From the NCBI GenBank assembly GCA_963755715.1, contig CAVWLW010000053.1:1-60565 (forward strand): 60,565 nt of DNA, read 5' to 3'. The notes beneath the pieces were generated by a model. It had not been told where the DNA came from, ran no database searches, and saw only the letters and a program-made list of their open reading frames with translations. Of the stretch, positions 22,371-39,781 are shown piece by piece (positions within the stretch are counted from its first letter, which is position 1; every line of letters begins with the position of its first letter). The stretch is from an uncultured delta proteobacterium (GTDB lineage: Bacteria; Desulfobacterota; Binatia; UBA9968). Position numbers and translations under genes: made by a program.

Positions 22371-22420
22371 GAGGATGGAAGATGGATGATCGAGGATTGC
22401 AATTTCCCATCATCTATCCT
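22371..22420. repeat. Heptamer-period imperfect inverted repeat
   Basis: GAGGATG GAAGATG GATGATC GAGGATT followed by CCATCAT CTATCCT, between hemH and hemY. Confidence 0.55.
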
Positions 22421-23356
22421 TGGCTCGTATCTTCGCTTCAATGACCTCAGCTATCATTTGCACAAAAGTGGGATGATCGTTGGGGCAGCTGGCGCGGACG
22501 AAGCGAACGTTTACATCCTCGGCGATTTTTCTGGCTTCGATGTCGAGATCATAAAGCACTTCGACGTGATCGCAGACAAAGCCGATCGGTGCGACGACGA
22601 CTTCGTTGCGTCCTTCGTTCGCTAGTTTTCGAATGGCCTTGCCGATGTCAGGCTCCAGCCACGGATCGCTCGGTCTGCCGCTGCGACTTTGGTAGGCGAG
22701 CGACCAACGGTCACGATCGAGCTCGCTGGCGATCAAACGGGCAGTTTCTTCGAGCTGCTGCACATACGGTGATCGCGCTGCCATAGCGACTGGTAAACTG
22801 TGCGCCGTAAAAATCAGTGGTGTCGGAATTCTCGTCGCTCCGATGCGAGATTTGCGAATGACGCCTCGATCATATCCGTCCAAGAATTGAATCAAGCGCG
22901 GGTGATTGTGCCAACCAGTCGCAGTAATCGACCGCCGGGGCCTCGCTCGCCAATCTCGGCGCGCGCCTCAGCGACATTCTTTTGATAGCGTTCCCAGCTT
23001 GCTTCGGTTCGATGCGACGAAAGAATAAATCCCAACGAGCTTTCTCGAATCCCGTCATCGAACATTTTTTTAAGCGTGTCGCGGAAGAACGGGCTGGAGT
23101 TGCGCATCCCGACGTAGACCGGCAGCGCGTGGCCGCTTTCATTCAAGACTTTTTGAAGCGCTTTCGCCTGGCGAAAAGTGATTTCGTTGAGCGGCGACTT
23201 GCCGCCGACGGCTTCGTAGTGGTGGACGACTTCTTCAAGCCGTTGCGGCGGTATTGGAATGCCTTTGGTGACTCGGGCAAGAAACGGGCGAATCTCTTCA
23301 GGCGAAGTCGGGCCGCCAAAGGCGATCAAAAGCACGGCTTGATACGGTTGAGCCAT
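22410..23356 (-). CDS. hemH: Ferrochelatase (probably coproporphyrin ferrochelatase); several frameshifts between about 22820 and 23050
   Basis: VLLIAFGGP, HYEAVGGKSPL, VYVGMRN, IFTAHSLP, AYQSRSG...WLEPD, PIGFVCDHVEVLYDLD. Confidence 0.88.
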
Positions 23357-29714: not shown

Positions 29715-29754
29715 AAAAAAAAACTAGAGGACGCGCGAATCGCGCGTCCTCTAG
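29715..29754 (-). terminator. Rho-independent terminator downstream of clpB
   Basis: 14-bp perfect stem CTAGAGGACGCGCG / CGCGCGTCCTCTAG (29724-29754) followed by a T9 tract on the minus strand. Confidence 0.9.
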
Positions 29755-29937: not shown

Positions 29938-32562
<2,625 letters not shown>

Positions 32563-32588: not shown

Positions 32589-32617
32589 AACCTAAGCATC
32601 GTTTTGCCGGCTGTCAA
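32589..32617 (-). promoter_or_regulatory. Candidate sigma70 promoter of clpB (TTGACA-17-TAGGTT)
   Basis: Perfect -35 at 32612-32617, 17-bp spacer, -10 at 32589-32594, 27 nt before the ATG. Confidence 0.6.
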
Positions 32618-32722: not shown

Positions 32723-33511
32723 TCAGGAGCCGTTTTTTCCGAGCTGAAAATATTCGAACATCGGTGCTTCGCAATGGCTGGCGCTGGTAAGGTCCATGCG
32801 CCGATCCGCCAGCACGATCCCGTCGTTGGTGCGAAGCATAAAAGGATAATCGGCGGGTTCAACCGGTGTGCCGCGCATTTTTTTTATCGCCATAGTGCGC
32901 TGGTACTTGCCGTTGATCTCGCCGATCTTGAGCAGAAAGACTCCGGAAGCGAGAAACTGCTCGATGCCGCCGGCGCTGGGCGAGGCTCCTTTCGGCAGAT
33001 GGGCGGTAAGCAGGTTGGTTGTATTGAGTTGCGATTGAATCAATTGAATCAATGAACGGGCCTGATCCTGGCTCGGGCTAGTGGCGTCGTTCGGCAGGAT
33101 GAGCGGCGTGATCGGATCGACGATCAGCAGGGTGGCGCTCAGTCGCTTTGCGTAGTTGCCGAGGTCGGCGATGATTTTTTGCGGATCGATGCCTTTCTCA
33201 GTCGCGCCGCCGCTACGGCCGCCAAAATAGGGCGAAGCATCCAAAATGACCAAACTTTTTTCTTGAATATACGGTTGAAGATCCCAGGAAAAGGATGCCG
33301 CCGATTCGACGATTTCGCCCGGGCGTTCGTCGACGGTCACGTAGACCGCCTTCTCGCCTCGTTTGAGAGCGCTCGAAAGAAACTGTAAACAGGCAATCGT
33401 TTTTCCCGTTCCCGTGTCGCCCGTCATGAGATAGGTGCGTCCTCGTACATAGCCGCCGTGAAGCAAACCGTCGAGGCCGATGATACCAGTGGAGATACGT
33501 GGGGAATCCAT
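32723..33511 (-). CDS. Single-domain KaiC-like (RAD55/RecA superfamily) ATPase, copy 2
   Basis: RISTGIIGLDGLLHGG, Walker A GDTGTGKT, YVTVDE, Walker B LIVDP, IKKMRGT. Confidence 0.88.
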   Translation of the reverse strand: MDSPRISTGIIGLDGLLHGGYVRGRTYLMTGDTGTGKTIACLQFLSSALKRGEKAVYVTVDERPGEIVESAASFSWDLQPYIQEKSLVILDASPYFGGRSGGATEKGIDPQKIIADLGNYAKRLSATLLIVDPITPLILPNDATSPSQDQARSLIQLIQSQLNTTNLLTAHLPKGASPSAGGIEQFLASGVFLLKIGEINGKYQRTMAIKKMRGTPVEPADYPFMLRTNDGIVLADRRMDLTSASHCEAPMFEYFQLGKNGS

Positions 33512-33527
33512 AGCTCGATCTTCCGAT

Positions 33528-34259
33528 TTAACGGGCCGAAGCCGGCGGCTGAACGACGATGCCTTGTCCTTTGACGATATCGAATTCGAGCTGCGTCGGT
33601 TTCACGTCGGTGCAGCGCATCTTCTCGACGATCAAGCTGCGCGCGAGAGCGCCGTTTTTCCAGACCATCTCGAGCACAATCGCGCCGGCGACGAGATATT
33701 CCTCCATGCCGTGCATGCTGCGTTCACCGGTACGCGGCACGGCGTAGGAGGTGAGCACGTTGGTGGTCGGCAGCGAAGAGCGCATCAGTTTGATCAGCAA
33801 ACGAATCTGGTCCTGGATGCGCACCGTGCTCGCGCGCAACAACACGAAAGGCCCCGCCGGATCGAGCACGAGTCTCTTGGCGCCGAGCTGCTTGACGAAG
33901 TTCCCGAGATCGCTGACGGCTCTTTGCACGTCGATATGTCGTTCGCTGCTCGCTCCCGGAAACGAGCTGAGATAAGTTCCGGCGTTAAGAATCGCCAAAT
34001 CCTTATTTTCGATATGAGGCTCAAAGTCCCAGCCCATGGAGGCGGCTTGCTCCAGTATGTCCATGGGATTTTCGTCGGCGCTGACAAAGATGCATTTTTC
34101 GTTGCGCTTCAGCCCCTCGGCAAGAAACTGCAAGGCGAAAATTGATTTTCCCGTGCCCGGTTCTCCGGTAATGAGGATCGAGCGGCCTTGAGGAAAACCG
34201 CCTTCGATGAGCGAGTCCAGTCCTAGGATTCCCGTGGGTACGCGTTCGGTCTGTAACAT
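33528..34259 (-). CDS. Single-domain KaiC-like (RAD55/RecA superfamily) ATPase, copy 1
   Basis: RVPTGILGLDSLIEGGFP, Walker A GEPGTGKS, FVSADE, LVLDP, EEYL, VEKMRCT. Confidence 0.88.
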   Translation of the reverse strand: MLQTERVPTGILGLDSLIEGGFPQGRSILITGEPGTGKSIFALQFLAEGLKRNEKCIFVSADENPMDILEQAASMGWDFEPHIENKDLAILNAGTYLSSFPGASSERHIDVQRAVSDLGNFVKQLGAKRLVLDPAGPFVLLRASTVRIQDQIRLLIKLMRSSLPTTNVLTSYAVPRTGERSMHGMEEYLVAGAIVLEMVWKNGALARSLIVEKMRCTDVKPTQLEFDIVKGQGIVVQPPASAR

Positions 34260-34324
34260 GATCGTCCTTTTACACTCAGGCTAGCGCTTCGTCGCTGCGA
34301 TGCGCGCCTTTGGCGACTGCCGCA

Positions 34325-37300
34325 TTACGATGACTTCCAACGTCTCTTCCAACCAAAACCGCCCTGCCAGCGGCGTGATGGAGAAATTTCATGGTCCTTG
34401 CCATTATTTGTGTGCAGGTTTTCAGCGCCCTCGAATTGCGCTTCTTGGACTTGATTTAACGGCGCGTCGCCGAGGATGAAATCGCCGCGTTCCAAGTTAT
34501 CGCGTGTTTCACTCTGCGCCAATTTTTCGCGCAAGGATTCGATTTCCTGACGGTAGGTTTGTTCGATCCCGTGCGACTCAGCCTGATGTTCCGCGTCGGC
34601 CCATTCCTTTTGGCTGAGCTCCGCCTGAAGCAGGGCAATCTGCGCTTGGAACTCGACCCGCATGCGCTCGCCTTCGCTGGTGAACGCGGCTTCGGCCTCG
34701 GTTGCGGCCGCTTCTACTTGGCTAAAGCGCTCGCGCAATCCATCCGCTTCGGCTTTGACGCGCACGAGCTCATCGTTGCGGTCTTGTAAAATCTGGTTTT
34801 TTTCTTGCGTTTCGCGAATCAGCCGGTCGAGCTCCCGCCGCAAGTTTTGCTCCAACTCTGGCTGCGCTTCGCCGCGCGCCTGGAGCTCGCTCGTCTTTTG
34901 CGCGACTTGGCGTTCCAAGTCGGCAATCCGCAGCCCATACTCTTCCTTGATCTGCACGGCTCGATCGATCGCCGTCCGCTCGGTTTGCTGCAGCTCGGTC
35001 GTCAATTCTGCAACGCGTTGATCGAGCAGGTGAGCTTGCGACTTGGATCGTTCGATTTCATGATCGCGCTCGCGGATTTGATTCCGCTCCTCGCTCATTT
35101 GGCTTTCGAGCTTTTGGATTTGGCTCTGGTGCGCGAGCGCCAAGTTTTCCAGAGCCGCTTGTTGCTGTGCCGACGCCCAGGCTTTTTGCTGCAGCTCACC
35201 GCGCGCCGCCGCCAGTTCCGTCTCGAGGTGGCTTCGAACTTGATTTTGCTCCCGTTCGGCGGCGGAGAGTTCCGTCTGGCGCCGCGTTTCCAGCTCATCC
35301 AAGCGCGATCGCAGTGCCGCAGCTTCGATCGCTACGGTTTCGTGCTCTCGCAGACGCTCTTTGAGCTGCGTTTCAATGGCGGTCTTCTGCTGTTCGAATT
35401 CACCAATCTGAAGAGTAAGTTCGGTGACACGCTGCCTTTCCTGGACGAGCTCATTGTCCTGGTTATTTTGCTTGATCTGATATTCATTGCGTAACTCGGC
35501 GATGGCCGCCTGATGTTGAGCCGCCACTGACGCGTTCTGCTGCAGCTCGCCGCGCGCCGCCGCCAGTTCGTCTTCGAATTTGACGCGCAGCTGCTCCTGC
35601 TCCCGCGTCGCCGCGGCAAGCTCCGTGTGACGGGACTCGAGATCATCGAGCCGCGAACGCAGAGTCGCGGCCTCCGAAGTTGCCGCTTCGAGATCCCGGC
35701 GATGCTCGCCCAGCACGCTTTCCAGATCCCGGTTACGCTGCTCGCTGGCGCTGATATTTTGATGAAGCTCGTCGACCCGCCGGCGTTCCTCGGCGAGCTC
35801 GTTTTCTCGATGGCTTCGGTCGGTTTGGTGTTCGACACTGAGCGCGACGAGCTTCGCTTGATGCTCGGCGTTGAGCTGTTCAATGTCTTTTTGTGACCGC
35901 GTCAGGGCATCTACAGCAGCTTCGCGCGCCGTCATTTTTTCCGCTAGTCGACTGAGGTGAGCTTTGAGATCGTTGATCTCAGCCATCCGGCTTTCGACCA
36001 GCAATTGTTTTTCCGCCAAATCGAGTTGCAGTTGGGCGATTTTGCTGTCGAGCTGGTGTTTGAGAGTCTCGCTGTCGGACTGAACTTTTTTTAATTCCAG
36101 TTCTTTCGCTTGTAAGCGGGTTTCGATCTCTTGGCGCAGAATAGTGGCCTGTTGCCCGTTTTGCTCAAGCTCGCGGCGCAACTGCTCCGACCGCGCCATC
36201 TCGCCCTCGATGCCGGTGTGCTCCACGCGCAAGCGGTCAAATTCTTTGCGCAGGGTTTCGGCATCGTTTTTCTCTTGTTGCAAGCGGTTGCGCAGCTCAG
36301 TGATTTCGTTGCCGTGCTCTTCTTCGATGGATCGAAAGCGTGATTCCTGCTCGTGCAGAGCGGCTTCGAGTTGTTCGTCCGCGCGCCGCTGCGTTGTTTC
36401 GAGTTCGTTCGCTTGAGCCTGCAGGCGCGCCTCTAGCTCCTGGCGAGATTCGGCAGCCTGGCCGAGCTGTTGGGTCAGCTCTTCGCGAGTGTTTTCTGAT
36501 CGCGCTTTTTGCTCTTCCAGACCGGCGATTGCGGTATGCAAGCGGACGAGCTCTAAATGGCCTTGCTGCTCTGCGAGCTCTCGTTCCTGCAAGCGATTTT
36601 GTAGTTGGTTGATTTCGTTGGTCGTTTGTTCTTCGAGCGATTTGAAATGAGCTTCGTGATCTCTACGCGCCTGTTGTACGAGCTCATGGGCGTTTGCCTG
36701 GAGGCCTCGCAGTTCATTGTCCTTGTCCCGCAGGCGCGCTTCCAGTTCCTGGCGAGCCAGCGTCTCCTGTTGTCGGCTCTGTTCCAGCTCGTTGCGGGAA
36801 TGCTCCAACTGGGATTTTTGCTCGTCGAGCGTGGCGATCTCAGAGCGCAGGCGCGTAAGCTCAGTGTTCGTGTGCTCGGCAGCCGATCGTTGCTCTTCCA
36901 GCTCGTTACGCAGTTGGCTGTTGTCCGCCGCCAGCCGCGCTTCGTTTGCCGCCGAATATTCTTCGCGCTCGTTCAGGGCAGATTCTTTCTGTGCCAGGGT
37001 ATCGCGCAGGTTGGATATTGCTGCTTCCGACGCGCGCCGTTTCTCTTCGGCGCGCTGTTGCTCTGCCAGGTTTTCCGCCGCGGCCGCTTCGTGGCGATTG
37101 ATCTGGTCGCGCAGGGCGGCCATCTCGGCGCGCGCGCTTTGCGCCGCAGTCTCGTGTTCTGCCATCGTGGCGCTGCTGCGCGCGAGGTCCTGCTGCAAGG
37201 ATTGGATTTTGCCATGCAAAGCCAGCTCGACGGCGCTCACGGCTTCCTGCCGTTCGGTCAGCGCGCGCTCGCGCCGGGCCACTTCGTGCTGCAAGCTCGC

Positions 37301-38326
37301 CAGCTCGTTTTCATGGGCGCGGCGCAAACTCGCCATTTCCTCGGCGCTGGCTTGCGCCAGTCGATCGGCGGCGCTTTCCAGCGCGGCGGCTCGCTGTTCG
37401 AGCGCGGCGCTTTGCGCCTGCACGCTGCGCACCTCAGCGTCGCGGCTCTCGATCAGGGCTTGTTCTTGCTCGAGCCGGCTGGCGAGCGTGAGGATCTCGT
37501 TTTTGAGGCCCTGTTCGGTCGCATTGGCCGTCCGGCGACTCTCTTCGAGCGCGGCATCGCGCTCGGCAAGAAGAGTCTGCAGACCGCCGACCTCGCTGTC
37601 GAAGCGCACGCGCATCCGCTCCAATTCCCGCGCCGCACTGGCCACGGCTTCCGTGCGGCTTGTTTCAAGCTCAGCCATCCGCCTCTGCATTTCAGGGATG
37701 GCAGCCCTGGCTTGTTGCAGCTCGGTTTCGGCGCTGCGCGACTGGTCTGATTTTTCTCGTAGCTGTTCTTGCAGTTGCGTGATTTGGTTTTGCAGAGCGT
37801 CTTGAAGTTGGCGCGCTACGAACTGCTCTTTTTGCCAGCTCTGTTGGTTTTCTTCCAGGCGCGCGCTTAAGGTGATCACTTCGGCTTCAAGCTCCCGGCG
37901 AGCGGCCGCGGATTGCCGCACTAGATCTTGCGCTTGCTCTTGAGCGCTTTCGCTTTGGCTGATTTGTTGGCGCAGATTTGCGGCGGCGGACTCGACGTCT
38001 TGAAGCTCGGCTTCCCGGCGGTCCAGTCGCTGCCGGACTTCGTCCAAGCCGCTCTCTAAAATTCGCACTTGTTCTCGAAGGCTTTGTTCTTGCGCGCTGG
38101 CGGCGCTTTGGCGTGCGGCCAGGACTTGTTCTTTTTCGGCGAGCGCGGCGCGTAAGCCGGTCAGTTCGGCTTGATGTTGCTCACGAGCGCGGGCACCCTC
38201 GTACGCTGCCGTCGCTTGGGATTGCTTAAAGTAAAGTTCGACGAGGCGCGATTGCGTCAGCAGGATTTCGATTTCGTTGAGCAACAGCGTCAACGGATCG
38301 CTGGCGGATTTGCTGGGTAAATCCAT
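34325..38326 (-). CDS. Giant coiled-coil protein (1333 aa), function unknown
   Basis: E/Q/R/L/A-rich, nearly proline-free heptad pattern over about 1270 aa; internal 103-aa and 116-aa repeats; no Walker motif or TM helix; C-terminus RRWQGGFGWKRRWKSS. Confidence 0.88.
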   Translation of the reverse strand: MDLPSKSASDPLTLLLNEIEILLTQSRLVELYFKQSQATAAYEGARAREQHQAELTGLRAALAEKEQVLAARQSAASAQEQSLREQVRILESGLDEVRQRLDRREAELQDVESAAANLRQQISQSESAQEQAQDLVRQSAAARRELEAEVITLSARLEENQQSWQKEQFVARQLQDALQNQITQLQEQLREKSDQSRSAETELQQARAAIPEMQRRMAELETSRTEAVASAARELERMRVRFDSEVGGLQTLLAERDAALEESRRTANATEQGLKNEILTLASRLEQEQALIESRDAEVRSVQAQSAALEQRAAALESAADRLAQASAEEMASLRRAHENELASLQHEVARRERALTERQEAVSAVELALHGKIQSLQQDLARSSATMAEHETAAQSARAEMAALRDQINRHEAAAAENLAEQQRAEEKRRASEAAISNLRDTLAQKESALNEREEYSAANEARLAADNSQLRNELEEQRSAAEHTNTELTRLRSEIATLDEQKSQLEHSRNELEQSRQQETLARQELEARLRDKDNELRGLQANAHELVQQARRDHEAHFKSLEEQTTNEINQLQNRLQERELAEQQGHLELVRLHTAIAGLEEQKARSENTREELTQQLGQAAESRQELEARLQAQANELETTQRRADEQLEAALHEQESRFRSIEEEHGNEITELRNRLQQEKNDAETLRKEFDRLRVEHTGIEGEMARSEQLRRELEQNGQQATILRQEIETRLQAKELELKKVQSDSETLKHQLDSKIAQLQLDLAEKQLLVESRMAEINDLKAHLSRLAEKMTAREAAVDALTRSQKDIEQLNAEHQAKLVALSVEHQTDRSHRENELAEERRRVDELHQNISASEQRNRDLESVLGEHRRDLEAATSEAATLRSRLDDLESRHTELAAATREQEQLRVKFEDELAAARGELQQNASVAAQHQAAIAELRNEYQIKQNNQDNELVQERQRVTELTLQIGEFEQQKTAIETQLKERLREHETVAIEAAALRSRLDELETRRQTELSAAEREQNQVRSHLETELAAARGELQQKAWASAQQQAALENLALAHQSQIQKLESQMSEERNQIRERDHEIERSKSQAHLLDQRVAELTTELQQTERTAIDRAVQIKEEYGLRIADLERQVAQKTSELQARGEAQPELEQNLRRELDRLIRETQEKNQILQDRNDELVRVKAEADGLRERFSQVEAAATEAEAAFTSEGERMRVEFQAQIALLQAELSQKEWADAEHQAESHGIEQTYRQEIESLREKLAQSETRDNLERGDFILGDAPLNQVQEAQFEGAENLHTNNGKDHEISPSRRWQGGFGWKRRWKSS
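35105..35803 (-). repeat. Two tandem ~116-aa (348-nt) intragenic repeats in the coiled-coil gene
   Basis: NELAEERRRV...EAATLRSRLDDLE...ELAAARGELQQ versus NELVQERQRV...EAAALRSRLDELE...ELAAARGELQQ; copies start at 35803 and 35455. Confidence 0.8.
36080..36862 (-). repeat. Three tandem 103-aa (309-nt) intragenic repeats (third partial) in the coiled-coil gene
   Basis: ELTRL...RQELEARL (36862), ELVRL...RQELEARL (36553), EFDRL...RQEIETRL (36244): exact 309-nt spacing. Confidence 0.82.
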
Positions 38327-38397
38327 GTTTACGGGCTCTGCTTATTGGTTGCGATCTTAGATTTTGATTGTCATCGAGATTCGACCATTGTCCGGCT

Positions 38398-38413
38398 AGC
38401 CAAAAACATGCCA
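38398..38413 (-). promoter_or_regulatory. Candidate sigma54 (-24/-12) promoter TGGCATGTTTTTGGCT
   Basis: GG-N10-GC spacing, close to the TGGCACG-N4-TTGC consensus; about 70 nt upstream of the coiled-coil ATG; A/T tract immediately upstream. Confidence 0.6.
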
Positions 38414-38683
38414 TTTAAAAAAACAGCAATTCTGCAATTTCAGATAGTTAGTACAAAGCCAAAACGCCAATCCGGCCGAAACGGAGAATTCTGGACAAAT
38501 GAGAGAATCTTCCGACAAAATTGTCATGATCTGTGCTAACGCAACCGAGTTGTGTCGGCAAGTGAGACCGCGCATTACGCTAGACGCTCCGCTGCGAGGC
38601 GTGGAAAATTGCCACGAGCACAATGACAGAACGCGACAAATGGCATTTGAAAAGGGCGACTCCTGCCGATAGAATTCCGCCAC

Positions 38684-39781
38684 ATGTCAGCTTATTTCCG
38701 CGCCAATATTGCGGCAATGGCCGGCTACATGCCGGGCGAGCAGCCGCAGGAAAACGGCATCATCAAGCTCAACACGAATGAGAATCCGTATGGGCCGTCG
38801 CCGCAAGTTTACGCTGCTCTAAGAAAATCGCTCAATCCGTCATTGCGTCTGTACCCGGAGCCGCAGAGCGATACGCTGCGATTAGCCGCCGCGAAAGTCT
38901 ACGGCGTGAAACCGGCTAATATTTTGGCCGGCAATGGATCGGATGAGATTCTATCGATTTTGCTGCGCTGCTTTGTCGGGCCGCGGGATCGAGTCGCCTA
39001 TCCGTTTCCGACCTATTCTCTTTATGACACTTTAATCGCGATCCAGGACGGTGTCGCGGCACCGGTCGCTTATCCGGCGGATTTTTCCCTGCCGGCGTCT
39101 CTCGCCGAGCAAAAAGCCGCGTTGACTTTCCTGTGCAATCCCAATGCGCCGTCCGGCACCCTGGTGACGCTGCCGGAGATCGAAAAACTCGCGCGTTCGC
39201 TCTCGGGACTCTTGGTGGTAGACGAGGCCTATGTCGACTTCGCTGCTAGCGAGGGCGCATCCTCGATTCCGCTTCTCTCCCGCCTTCCTAATCTGGTCGT
39301 GCTGCGGACTTTTTCCAAGTCATTCTCCTTGGCCGGCATGCGCATCGGGCTCGCGTTTGCCGCGGAGGAAATTATCGCCGGCATGATGAAAGTGAAGGAC
39401 TCGTACAATTTGAACCGCCTGAGCTTGATTGCGGCGACCGCCGCGCTGGCGGATCTGCCCTGGATGGGACGCAACGCGCGGCGCATTCAACGCGGTCGTA
39501 AAAGACTGACGAGTGGGCTCAAGCGCCTGAGCTACGACGTTTATCCCTCCCATGCGAATTTTATTCTGGCGCGCAAGCAGGGGCAAAATCAGAAAAGCGT
39601 CTACGAAGAGCTGAAGCGAAGAAAAATTCTCGTGCGTTACTTCGACCTGCCGGGCCTGCAAGATTGTTTGCGCATCACGGTCGGCGCGCCGGTGGAAATC
39701 CAGGCGTTGCTGACGGAGATGGCGGCGATCGCCGGCAGCCGTGAAACCGGCTCTCTGACAGCTGCGCAAAAGGAGGGTTAG
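38684..39781 (+). CDS. hisC: Histidinol-phosphate aminotransferase
   Basis: IKLNTNENPY, GNGSDE, CNPNAPSG, VVDEAY, RTFSKSFSLAGMRIG. Confidence 0.93.
   Translation: MSAYFRANIAAMAGYMPGEQPQENGIIKLNTNENPYGPSPQVYAALRKSLNPSLRLYPEPQSDTLRLAAAKVYGVKPANILAGNGSDEILSILLRCFVGPRDRVAYPFPTYSLYDTLIAIQDGVAAPVAYPADFSLPASLAEQKAALTFLCNPNAPSGTLVTLPEIEKLARSLSGLLVVDEAYVDFAASEGASSIPLLSRLPNLVVLRTFSKSFSLAGMRIGLAFAAEEIIAGMMKVKDSYNLNRLSLIAATAALADLPWMGRNARRIQRGRKRLTSGLKRLSYDVYPSHANFILARKQGQNQKSVYEELKRRKILVRYFDLPGLQDCLRITVGAPVEIQALLTEMAAIAGSRETGSLTAAQKEG

Follow-up and report, generated by a model that had tools for sequence, protein, structure and literature searches.

The question raised by this locus was whether a giant coiled-coil gene and two genes of KaiC-like ATPases, lying one behind the other upstream of clpB, belong to one system, and what such a system would do. 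The locus was carried by a stretch of 60,565 nucleotides (nt) of DNA from an uncultured delta proteobacterium of the class Binatia (lineage UBA9968; contig CAVWLW010000053.1 of assembly GCA_963755715.1), and this whole stretch is called the window below. According to the list of open reading frames (ORFs), the minus strand displayed the gene order 1333-amino-acid (aa) coiled-coil protein (P0001, the rod), ATPase A (P0002), ATPase B (P0003), and clpB, all co-oriented. The module was found to be real, lineage-restricted and, apparently, undescribed; judged from the loci compared, its conserved core is rod plus ATPase A, with B as a facultative member. Our preferred reading, held with about as much doubt as confidence, is that of a sigma-54-driven Binatia module in which the rod would serve as a scaffold or tether and ATPase A as a switch set by its nucleotide or autophosphorylation state.

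The rod gene was followed by the A gene and then by clpB in 12/12 same-genus loci fetched (A orthologues 72-87% identical to window A), and 10 of these 12 had a called B-type ORF, which was absent from G015 and reduced to out-of-frame remnants in G019. When metagenome contigs were scanned for the C-terminal module of the rod, 63 loci were obtained, 56 of them with at least 400 nt and 49 with at least 1300 nt of downstream sequence. An A-type gene, starting 20-232 nt past the rod gene and 71-100% identical to A, was present in 56/56 loci, and this downstream ATPase was in every case hit best by A and not by B or C (the ATPase of a second module, see below); A was followed by B in 41/49 loci and directly by clpB in 8/49. 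These metagenome counts are not independent, because many of the loci are near-duplicates. An earlier reading made from the letters of the window (the sequence-only reading) had made its case depend on co-conservation of all three genes: the rod-A part of this condition held (56/56), the part concerning B did so only in 41/49 loci, and the arrangement coiled coil-A-B-clpB as a whole did recur across the genus. Conversely, no rod module was found in any of the four genus genomes that had no A orthologue (completeness 84-97%), where the positive control was found.

Matches to A at E <= 1e-10 were obtained in 30/41 relatives (family f1, 24/24; f2, 5/5; f3, 0/11; the tally includes the unpublished genome G005, which enters no other result), and matches at E <= 1e-35 in 2/301 genomes of an even draw of the phylum, namely the genome of the window itself and one of the same family. 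Related contigs came from metagenome-assembled genomes named 'Candidatus Binatia' or 'Deltaproteobacteria bacterium'. The nearest relatives outside Binatia were archaeal single-domain proteins with 30-34% identity, which were true members of TIGR03881 and had no coiled-coil neighbours. As far as these searches reach, the module family is confined to a Binatia-type soil lineage.

The rod qualified as a coiled coil in the sense of a structural class, not of a homology family: its hydrophobic periodicity peaked at 3.54 residues, 64% of its residues were E, A, L, Q, or R, and helix breakers were few (6 prolines in 1333 residues). It matched no Pfam family, PspA/IM30 included, and against the SMC model TIGR02168 it reached 66.8 bits over coiled-coil stretches only (cut-off 567), short of SMC membership; an ATPase head, a hinge, and a nuclease were all missing. 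The orthologues in the 12 genus loci displayed lengths of 255-1685 aa and identities of 27-57% to the window rod, and they had strongly conserved ends and a fast-evolving, length-variable middle. The conserved ends were (i) an N-terminal head (SDPxxLLLNEIDILLAQTRLMELYLKQAQAT among orthologues) and (ii) a C-terminal module (Table 1) that comprised the coiled segment QAQ[IL]ALLQAELSQKEWA, showed the consensus QAQLALLQAELSQKEWALEER among orthologues, contained a short motif at residues 1283-1290, F[VI][LM]G[DE]xxL (more narrowly F[VI][LM]G[DE]PxL), and ended in the Trp/Arg-rich basic tail RRWQGGFGWKRRWKSS (orthologue consensus RRWQSGFGWKRRW[KR]S). A profile of the C-terminal module gave 102 matches among 1.84 billion representative proteins, nearly all of them at the extreme C-terminus. 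Two blocks of tandem repeats of ~120 aa in the middle were recognized by a windowed off-diagonal Smith-Waterman scan, in which shuffled segments scored 52 +/- 10 (maximum 91); self-BLAST of the rod detected no internal repeats. In the protein atlas, where scores below 0.9 are leads only, rod residues 1190-1333 fell with generic coiled-coil clusters (best 0.91; crescentin rod cluster 0.87). Complex prediction of ATPase A with the C-terminal 120 residues of the rod, a fragment of uncertain fold, returned scores of 0.00/0.00 (mark 0.32), which speak neither for nor against binding. The shortest rod, of only 255 aa, occurred in G022 (L045:7109-7876), where the C-terminal module was kept, the N-terminal head was gone, and the upstream neighbours differed; as a natural truncation, it may prove informative.

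ATPases A and B each matched the Pfam family KaiC (PF06745, cut-off 26.6 bits): A with 199.7 bits (5.7e-59) over profile positions 1-229 of 231 and B with 179.1 bits (1.2e-52) over the whole domain. A retained Walker A (GEPGTGKS), the acidic pair D62-E63, Walker B (D133), and R215. In a 12-sequence alignment of A, B, and relatives, the residues G35/G37/K38, D62 (nearly invariant)/E63, D133, and R215 were invariant or nearly so; the same catalytic residues were all invariant across 32 A-type sequences, and Walker A GxxGxGK[ST] and the KMRxT arginine were retained in A, B, and relatives. By these motifs, A and B look catalytically competent. Aligned to KaiC chain 8zn5_B, A scored 137 bits with the CI half and 45 with the CII half, and B 117 and 42, respectively. 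Since both aligned best to the CI half, A and B were two CI-like paralogues and not the halves of a split KaiC, one of the options offered by the sequence-only reading.

No membership in a named KaiC-type or anti-phage defence system was found: (i) circadian KaiC (NF006799/TIGR02655) gave 136.2 bits for A and 125.8 for B (cut-off 408), each with a single domain; (ii) ArlH/FlaH (NF052589) gave 51.6 and 46.2 bits (cut-off 215); (iii) KaiC_arch_4 (TIGR03881) gave 136 for A, 100.2 for B, and 123.6 for C (cut-off 247.8; archaeal members 369-376); (iv) GvpD gave a 26.5-bit match at profile positions 9-52 of 189 only, with no gvp genes in the neighbourhood; and (v) PADLOC defence systems gave weak matches only (LmuB, 16.5 bits; mad8, 25.4 bits), which fell on the coiled coil or the P-loop. 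The kaiB (PF07689) and kaiA (PF07688) families had 0 matches in the window's genome (93.6% complete), and a Synechococcus control was detected. Hence, the absence of kaiA and kaiB, stated earlier for the locus, extended to this genome, and the kaiBC or gvpD membership considered at that time came out negative throughout. The C-terminal extension of B-type proteins ended in MFEYF[DQ] within the genus and in LQ[PA]FEPEK in distant orthologues that had no rod gene, and because of its presence in the latter the tail motif of B predates the rod.

A -24/-12 element of sigma-54 type, TGGCATGTTTTTGGCT, preceded the rod gene. This block was kept in 10/10 orthologous rod upstream regions (identical in 7) within an otherwise poorly conserved spacer. 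Further upstream lay a candidate upstream activating sequence (UAS), the block gacatttt-tgtcc..N..tttgtcca, which was found in 9/10 aligned upstream regions and was unrecognisable in G008; from its sequence, the pair of TGTC[CG] repeats in it may act as an enhancer. Between UAS and promoter, a conserved block, TAACTAnCTGATTTT, was present, which we take to resemble the IHF consensus. The genome of the window encoded one rpoN (PF04552) and 31 enhancer-binding proteins (PF00158), and with the 10/10 footprint these backed the sigma-54 promoter of the sequence-only reading. A strict motif scan of this genome gave 68 matches, 33 of them intergenic-looking with a downstream ORF, and three TGTC[CG] elements were located upstream at the two rod promoters only; in a loose scan, at least one TGTCC-type element lay upstream of 9/89 sigma-54-like sites. 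An enhancer motif common to both rod promoters is suggested by these scans, and no more than suggested. In locus L061, the -24/-12 element and the upstream element were retained intact in front of A and a decayed B, and the rod was a remnant of ~30 codons (..SVLLLNEIE..), which reads as a secondary deletion; the promoter directly precedes A and B there, and this implies that transcription of these two genes, too, starts from it.

Three side observations were made on such sites. Within the window, a 95-aa ORF (38396-38683, minus) overlapped the regulatory region; it had neither a Pfam match nor a conserved counterpart in related loci and probably is not a gene. Elsewhere in the genome (C75, ~28295, minus), a sigma-54-like site with the TGGCT variant of the -12 element stood before an unrelated, very basic ORF of ~50 codons. 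In other Binatia genera, B-like KaiC genes having no rod (L110:5682-6635 and L054:7077-8006; tails IFEAWNP or DIFKEWEP) were preceded by sigma-54-like motifs at 58 and 31 nt.

Table 1. Positions of the rod-ATPase module, its control elements, and its neighbours in the window
Feature	Position	Strand	Size or residues	Remark
Rod, giant coiled-coil protein P0001	34325-38326	minus	1333 aa	ORF call; no Pfam match
Rod, conserved N-terminal head	38192-38302	minus	residues 9-45	SDPxxLLLNEIEILLxQxRLxELYxKQxQAT; alignment of 10 orthologues
Rod, tandem repeats, block 1	36047-37006	minus	residues 441-760	units of ~120 aa; Smith-Waterman 168-186
Rod, tandem repeats, block 2	34967-35926	minus	residues 801-1120	units of ~120 aa; Smith-Waterman 208-232
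Rod, conserved C-terminal module	34328-34687	minus	residues 1214-1333	orthologue alignments
Rod, Trp/Arg-rich basic tail	34328-34375		residues 1318-1333	within the C-terminal module
Rod-A gap	34260-34324		65 nt	
ATPase A, P0002	33528-34259	minus	243 aa	single-domain KaiC-like (CI-like), RecA-fold
A-B gap	33512-33527		16 nt	
ATPase B, P0003	32723-33511	minus	262 aa	single-domain KaiC-like; C-terminal tail motif MFEYFQL
Sigma-54 type -24/-12 element	38398-38413	minus		TGGCATGTTTTTGGCT, GG-N10-GC; 71 nt before the rod ATG
IHF-like element	38436-38450	minus		TAACTATCTGAAATT; between UAS and promoter; conserved block TAACTAnCTGATTTT
Candidate enhancer (UAS)	38493-38524	minus		GACAATTTTGTCG then TTTGTCCAG; two TGTC[CG] repeats, ~85-110 nt upstream of -24
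Aminotransferase gene	38684-39781	divergent		upstream of the rod gene
clpB promoter-like block	32590-32617	minus		TTGACA (32612-32617) and TGCTTAGGT (32590-32598)
clpB	29938-32562	minus		downstream neighbour, outside the module
Intrinsic-terminator-like hairpin	29724-29754	minus	14-bp stem	stem plus T run, past clpB; sole strong one on this strand

RNA-library contigs carried pieces of rod, A, and B in 4/4 soil runs from four studies, at 92% identity or above and in some cases without mismatch. One contig piece extended from within A over the 65-nt gap and covered the last 16 nt of the rod gene, and none of the RNA contigs shown overlapped a gene junction with 31 nt or more on each side. Positions 37854-38750, among others, had no cover, and contigs ended near 34314/34315; in assembled contigs, neither feature is interpretable. 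From such contigs, neither the ends nor the strand nor the level of a transcript can be read, and carry-over of DNA is possible, so that they hint only faintly at expression of the three genes.

The site upstream of clpB had a history of its own. In two other Binatia loci, L065 and L068, a single B-like gene lay between the aminotransferase gene and clpB, and no rod was present. In L063, L064, and G331, the site was occupied by a KaiC-like gene, a gene of a receiver fused to a degenerate KaiC-like domain, and a receiver-HisKA-HATPase kinase gene, again with no rod, and in f2 loci such a KaiC-like/receiver/kinase set occurred with no adjacent clpB. No sigma-54 motif was found in the short spacers of the rod-less lineages of either the L065/L068 or the kinase type. 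In a maximum-likelihood tree of 40 proteins, the single L065/L068 gene was the sister of B (support 100/99), and A, C, and the receiver-associated type formed separate clades. Because B clades with the L065/L068 gene, B is the old resident of the site, and rod, A, and promoter were added in front of it; B would then have joined the transcription unit, as an older KaiC-like paralogue upstream of clpB, when rod and A settled there. The obligatory A+B pair envisaged by the sequence-only reading was not supported, given the absence of B from 8/49 metagenome loci and G015 and its place in the clade of an older single gene. The comparison documents, within one bacterial class, a swap at the clpB-upstream site from a KaiC-like/two-component module to a KaiC-like/rod module. 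As a side observation, fusions of a receiver with a degenerate KaiC-like (DUF7504) region were located at L055:6751-7965, L053:5741-7180, L063:2152-3363, and L109:4496-5686; the fusion set lay just upstream of clpB in L063 and L109 (G331), and clpB was not adjacent in the f2 loci L053 and L055.

A second pairing of a helical protein with a KaiC-like ATPase was found in the same genome, which had nine PF06745 matches and no receiver-KaiC-like partner among them. ATPase C was single-domain and KaiC-like (PF06745, 198.6 bits) and 50% identical to A. A 634-aa helical protein was encoded directly upstream of C in 12/16 genus genomes; in the remaining four, C had other neighbours (enolase, endonuclease III), and those four genomes yielded no homologue of the 634-aa protein at any place, where the control was found. 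The motif TGGCAyNNNNNTTGGCT, of the same promoter type as that of the rod, lay upstream of the 634-aa gene in 8/8 genomes; in two, the ORF had been called too long and enclosed the motif. The family of the 634-aa protein shared a conserved N-terminal helix and a basic C-terminal end, ..ELREKSGRWKVRR; its AlphaFold2 model was all helical but of low confidence, with pLDDT 50 and pTM 0.19.

The search of the published literature, with supplementary files outside its reach, returned no account of a giant coiled-coil gene that has a KaiC-like ATPase for a partner and nothing on Binatia in this respect. The module was compared with the nearest known systems. With crescentin, Scy, FilP, and AglZ it shared the long heptad rod, but not a specific sequence relation, and we know of no KaiC-type ATPase partner or sigma-54 control for any of these four. 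The Psp response is likewise sigma-54-controlled, with the helical, membrane-directed PspA; the rod, in contrast, had no PspA/IM30 match and was ~six times longer. In Rhodobacter sphaeroides, a coiled coil is reported to be functionally joined to a KaiC ATPase (bioRxiv 10.1101/2022.11.28.518275), which is the point of likeness. The coiled coil of that species reportedly forms a short C-terminal extension of a double-domain KaiC; here, it was a giant protein of its own, and the ATPase beside it had a single domain. Cyanobacterial KaiC resembled A and B in the PF06745 domain, the full alignment of the CI half, and the retained catalytic motifs, and differed in having CI plus CII and the genomic kaiA/kaiB that were not found here; A and B remained below the 408-bit cut-off.

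In ArlH/ArlX of the crenarchaeal archaellum, a single-domain KaiC-like RecA-fold protein binds a scaffold, and its ATP-binding/autophosphorylation state switches assembly (PMC8978795). Here, too, a protein of this type stood beside a candidate scaffold; unlike ArlH, however, A and B scored far below the 215-bit cut-off (51.6 and 46.2 bits), had no archaellum genes nearby, and came from a bacterial host, and ArlX is a short ring-forming membrane protein with a transmembrane helix, in contrast to the soluble-looking rod of 255-1685 aa. Archaeal KaiC_arch_4 proteins (TIGR03881) were the nearest non-Binatia relatives and had the same single-domain size, but A and B scored far under the cut-off of this family, and the archaeal genes preceded a conserved family-less ORF of ~284 aa and not a coiled coil. 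Each of the KaiC_arch_4 genes inspected in Thermoproteota/Bathyarchaeia was followed by such an ORF of ~282-291 aa, outside any family of NCBIfam or Pfam (L069:7816-8664, L070:7780-8634, L082:7797-8651, and L073:7776-8651), and this ORF may encode a partner protein of KaiC_arch_4. Bacterial KaiC homologues, finally, have been reported beside response regulators and histidine kinases in Pseudomonas and others, with a link to resistance against stress (bioRxiv 10.1101/2022.01.26.477890); sister Binatia conformed to this in holding KaiC-like, receiver-KaiC-like, and hybrid kinase genes upstream of clpB, unlike the present genus, which had a rod and a sigma-54 promoter in the place of kinase and receiver genes.

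Under the preferred scaffold-switch reading, the module would work as follows. An enhancer-binding protein at the TGTCC repeats would turn the operon on under a specific condition. The rod would dimerise into a tether or scaffold ~0.18-0.19 micrometres long, a length that follows from ~1250 helical residues at the helix rise of 0.15 nm per residue. Its conserved ends may be binding sites: one of them would attach to a surface, where the basic-aromatic Trp/Arg tail suggests the membrane or another polyanionic surface, and the other conserved elements of the rod would dock ATPase A. The nucleotide or autophosphorylation state of A would then be a slow switch on rod assembly, disassembly, or partner binding, by analogy with ArlH acting on ArlX/ArlI.

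Several points weigh against this scheme or limit it. The physical contact between rod and ATPase is something we infer, and the membrane reading of the tail comes from its composition; the rod had no transmembrane segment and no known lipid-binding domain. Two-mismatch -24/-12 matches numbered 26 in the window against 27.95 expected, that is, chance level, for which reason TGGCATGTTTTTGGCT by itself proves nothing. None of the 31 enhancer-binding protein genes was near either module. The compared genomes are close kin, and with the near-duplicates among the metagenome loci the counts inflate independent support. The rod was lost where A and B remained (L061), and B was lost where rod and A remained (G015; 8/49 loci), so that no component is strictly dependent on another. 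A common origin of the two rod families was considered and set aside, since hhalign gave a probability of 6.3% with the heads and of 1.6% with the tails; because homology of the rods was not demonstrable, the second module is to be treated as analogous and not as paralogous, and 'two copies of one system' would hold as an analogy only.

The main rival is that the genes are co-regulated and act separately, the rod as a structural or cytoskeletal protein induced by stress or another condition, in the manner of crescentin, Scy, or FilP, and the ATPases as signalling hubs with other targets, such as two-component proteins or clpB expression, with adjacency reflecting a shared regulon. It would explain the KaiC-like/receiver-KaiC-like/kinase sets without rod at the same site in sister lineages, the B orthologues without rod (L065, L068), the loss of the rod from an A- and B-bearing locus (L061), and the company of kinases and regulators in which KaiC homologues were linked to stress resistance (bioRxiv 10.1101/2022.01.26.477890). 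It fits less well with the adjacency of rod and A in 56/56 loci and their co-absence in 4/4 genomes, with the second, independent pairing of a rod and an ATPase, and with the lack of a receiver-KaiC-like partner among the nine PF06745 matches of the genome. It is considered unlikely, though the most serious competitor. Mere neighbourhood by chance, with the large ORF being a compositional artefact or an unrelated gene, could draw on the chance-level number of sigma-54 motifs in the window and on the many shadow ORFs of the opposite strand; judged from the conserved ends and reading frame across genomes, the linkage in 56/56 loci, the 10/10 promoter footprint, and the rod gene pieces in RNA libraries, it is already contradicted by conservation and hardly credible.

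Two further readings are improbable, each to a similar degree. The version of the sequence-only reading, in which A and B form a split KaiC or an obligatory hetero-oligomeric ring that controls a filament, agrees with the adjacency and co-orientation of the two genes across 16 nt, with the seemingly intact catalytic motifs of both, and with B behind A in 41/49 loci; it conflicts with the CI-like nature of both proteins (not one CI and one CII), with the placement of B in the clade of the older single gene (100/99), with its absence (G015; 8/49 loci), frameshift (G019), or decay (L061), with its tail motif being older than the rod, and with the single ATPase of the second module. A nucleic-acid machine, that is, an SMC/Rad50-like tether with its basic tail on DNA or RNA and a RecA-superfamily ATPase for repair, segregation, or defence, is brought to mind by weak matches of the rod to SMC coiled-coil regions and to the coiled-coil parts of LmuB/JetC, weak matches of the ATPases to RecA/RadA/DnaB, and the strongly basic tail. 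These matches, however, lay far under the cut-offs and covered only coiled coil or P-loop, the rod had no ATPase head, hinge, or nuclease, the module occupied a stable chromosomal site, and no DNA-metabolism or mobile-element gene was linked to it, recD2 being 3.4 kb off beyond three unrelated genes.

Returning to the scaffold-switch reading, the combination of a KaiC-like ATPase of one domain with a partner specific to the lineage stands a fair chance of proving a new system of this kind. The fuller version, a new bacterial tether or cytoskeletal system with a KaiC-type RecA ATPase as a slow timer, driven by nucleotide or phosphorylation, on the assembly or attachment of a rod of ~0.2 micrometres, repeat-tuned length, two analogous versions, and a dedicated sigma-54 regulon, is put forward as a doubtful but possible extension. 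Single-domain KaiC-like ATPases are abundant, have a known function in very few cases (mainly ArlH), and are almost unstudied in bacteria. The strictly linked rod-A pair is testable at its candidate docking elements, namely the N-terminal head, the F-x-x-G-D-x-x-L motif, and the Trp/Arg tail; additional handles are the defined promoter architecture, the second analogous module in the same genome, and natural 'knock-outs' of the rod (L061) and of B (G015 and 8/49 metagenome loci). If true, the reading would carry the KaiC switch principle beyond clocks and archaella into the cell architecture of bacteria, and the module might be a bacterial counterpart of the archaeal single-domain KaiC-like switches on large machines.

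As for the surroundings, the gene layout of the sequence-only reading (a 1333-aa coiled coil and two ~250-aa KaiC-like ATPases at gaps of 65 and 16 nt) was reproduced exactly by the ORF calls, and its statement that kinase, gvp, and archaellum genes were absent agreed with 0 matches to Kai, gas-vesicle, archaellum, and kinase families among the 22 neighbouring ORFs scanned. The minus strand contained no terminator-like hairpin upstream of the clpB end, and the rod-A gap displayed no significant RNA structure (z = -0.03) and neither attenuator nor terminator. B and clpB were separated by 160 nt, in which the pattern CTTGACA..TGCTTAnnT was kept in 14/15 clpB upstream regions from several Binatia families. 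By its sequence, this block has the look of a promoter of housekeeping type, its -10 being extended, and not of a classical heat-shock promoter; its conservation made clpB a neighbour with independent expression, in keeping with the separate clpB promoter that had been read from the letters. Apart from the module, the ferrochelatase gene of the window (22410-23356, minus) was split into two ORFs overlapping by 4 nt, of 154 aa (profile positions 2-144) and 161 aa (183-316); the split may be genuine, or it may stem from a frameshift or from an error of assembly.

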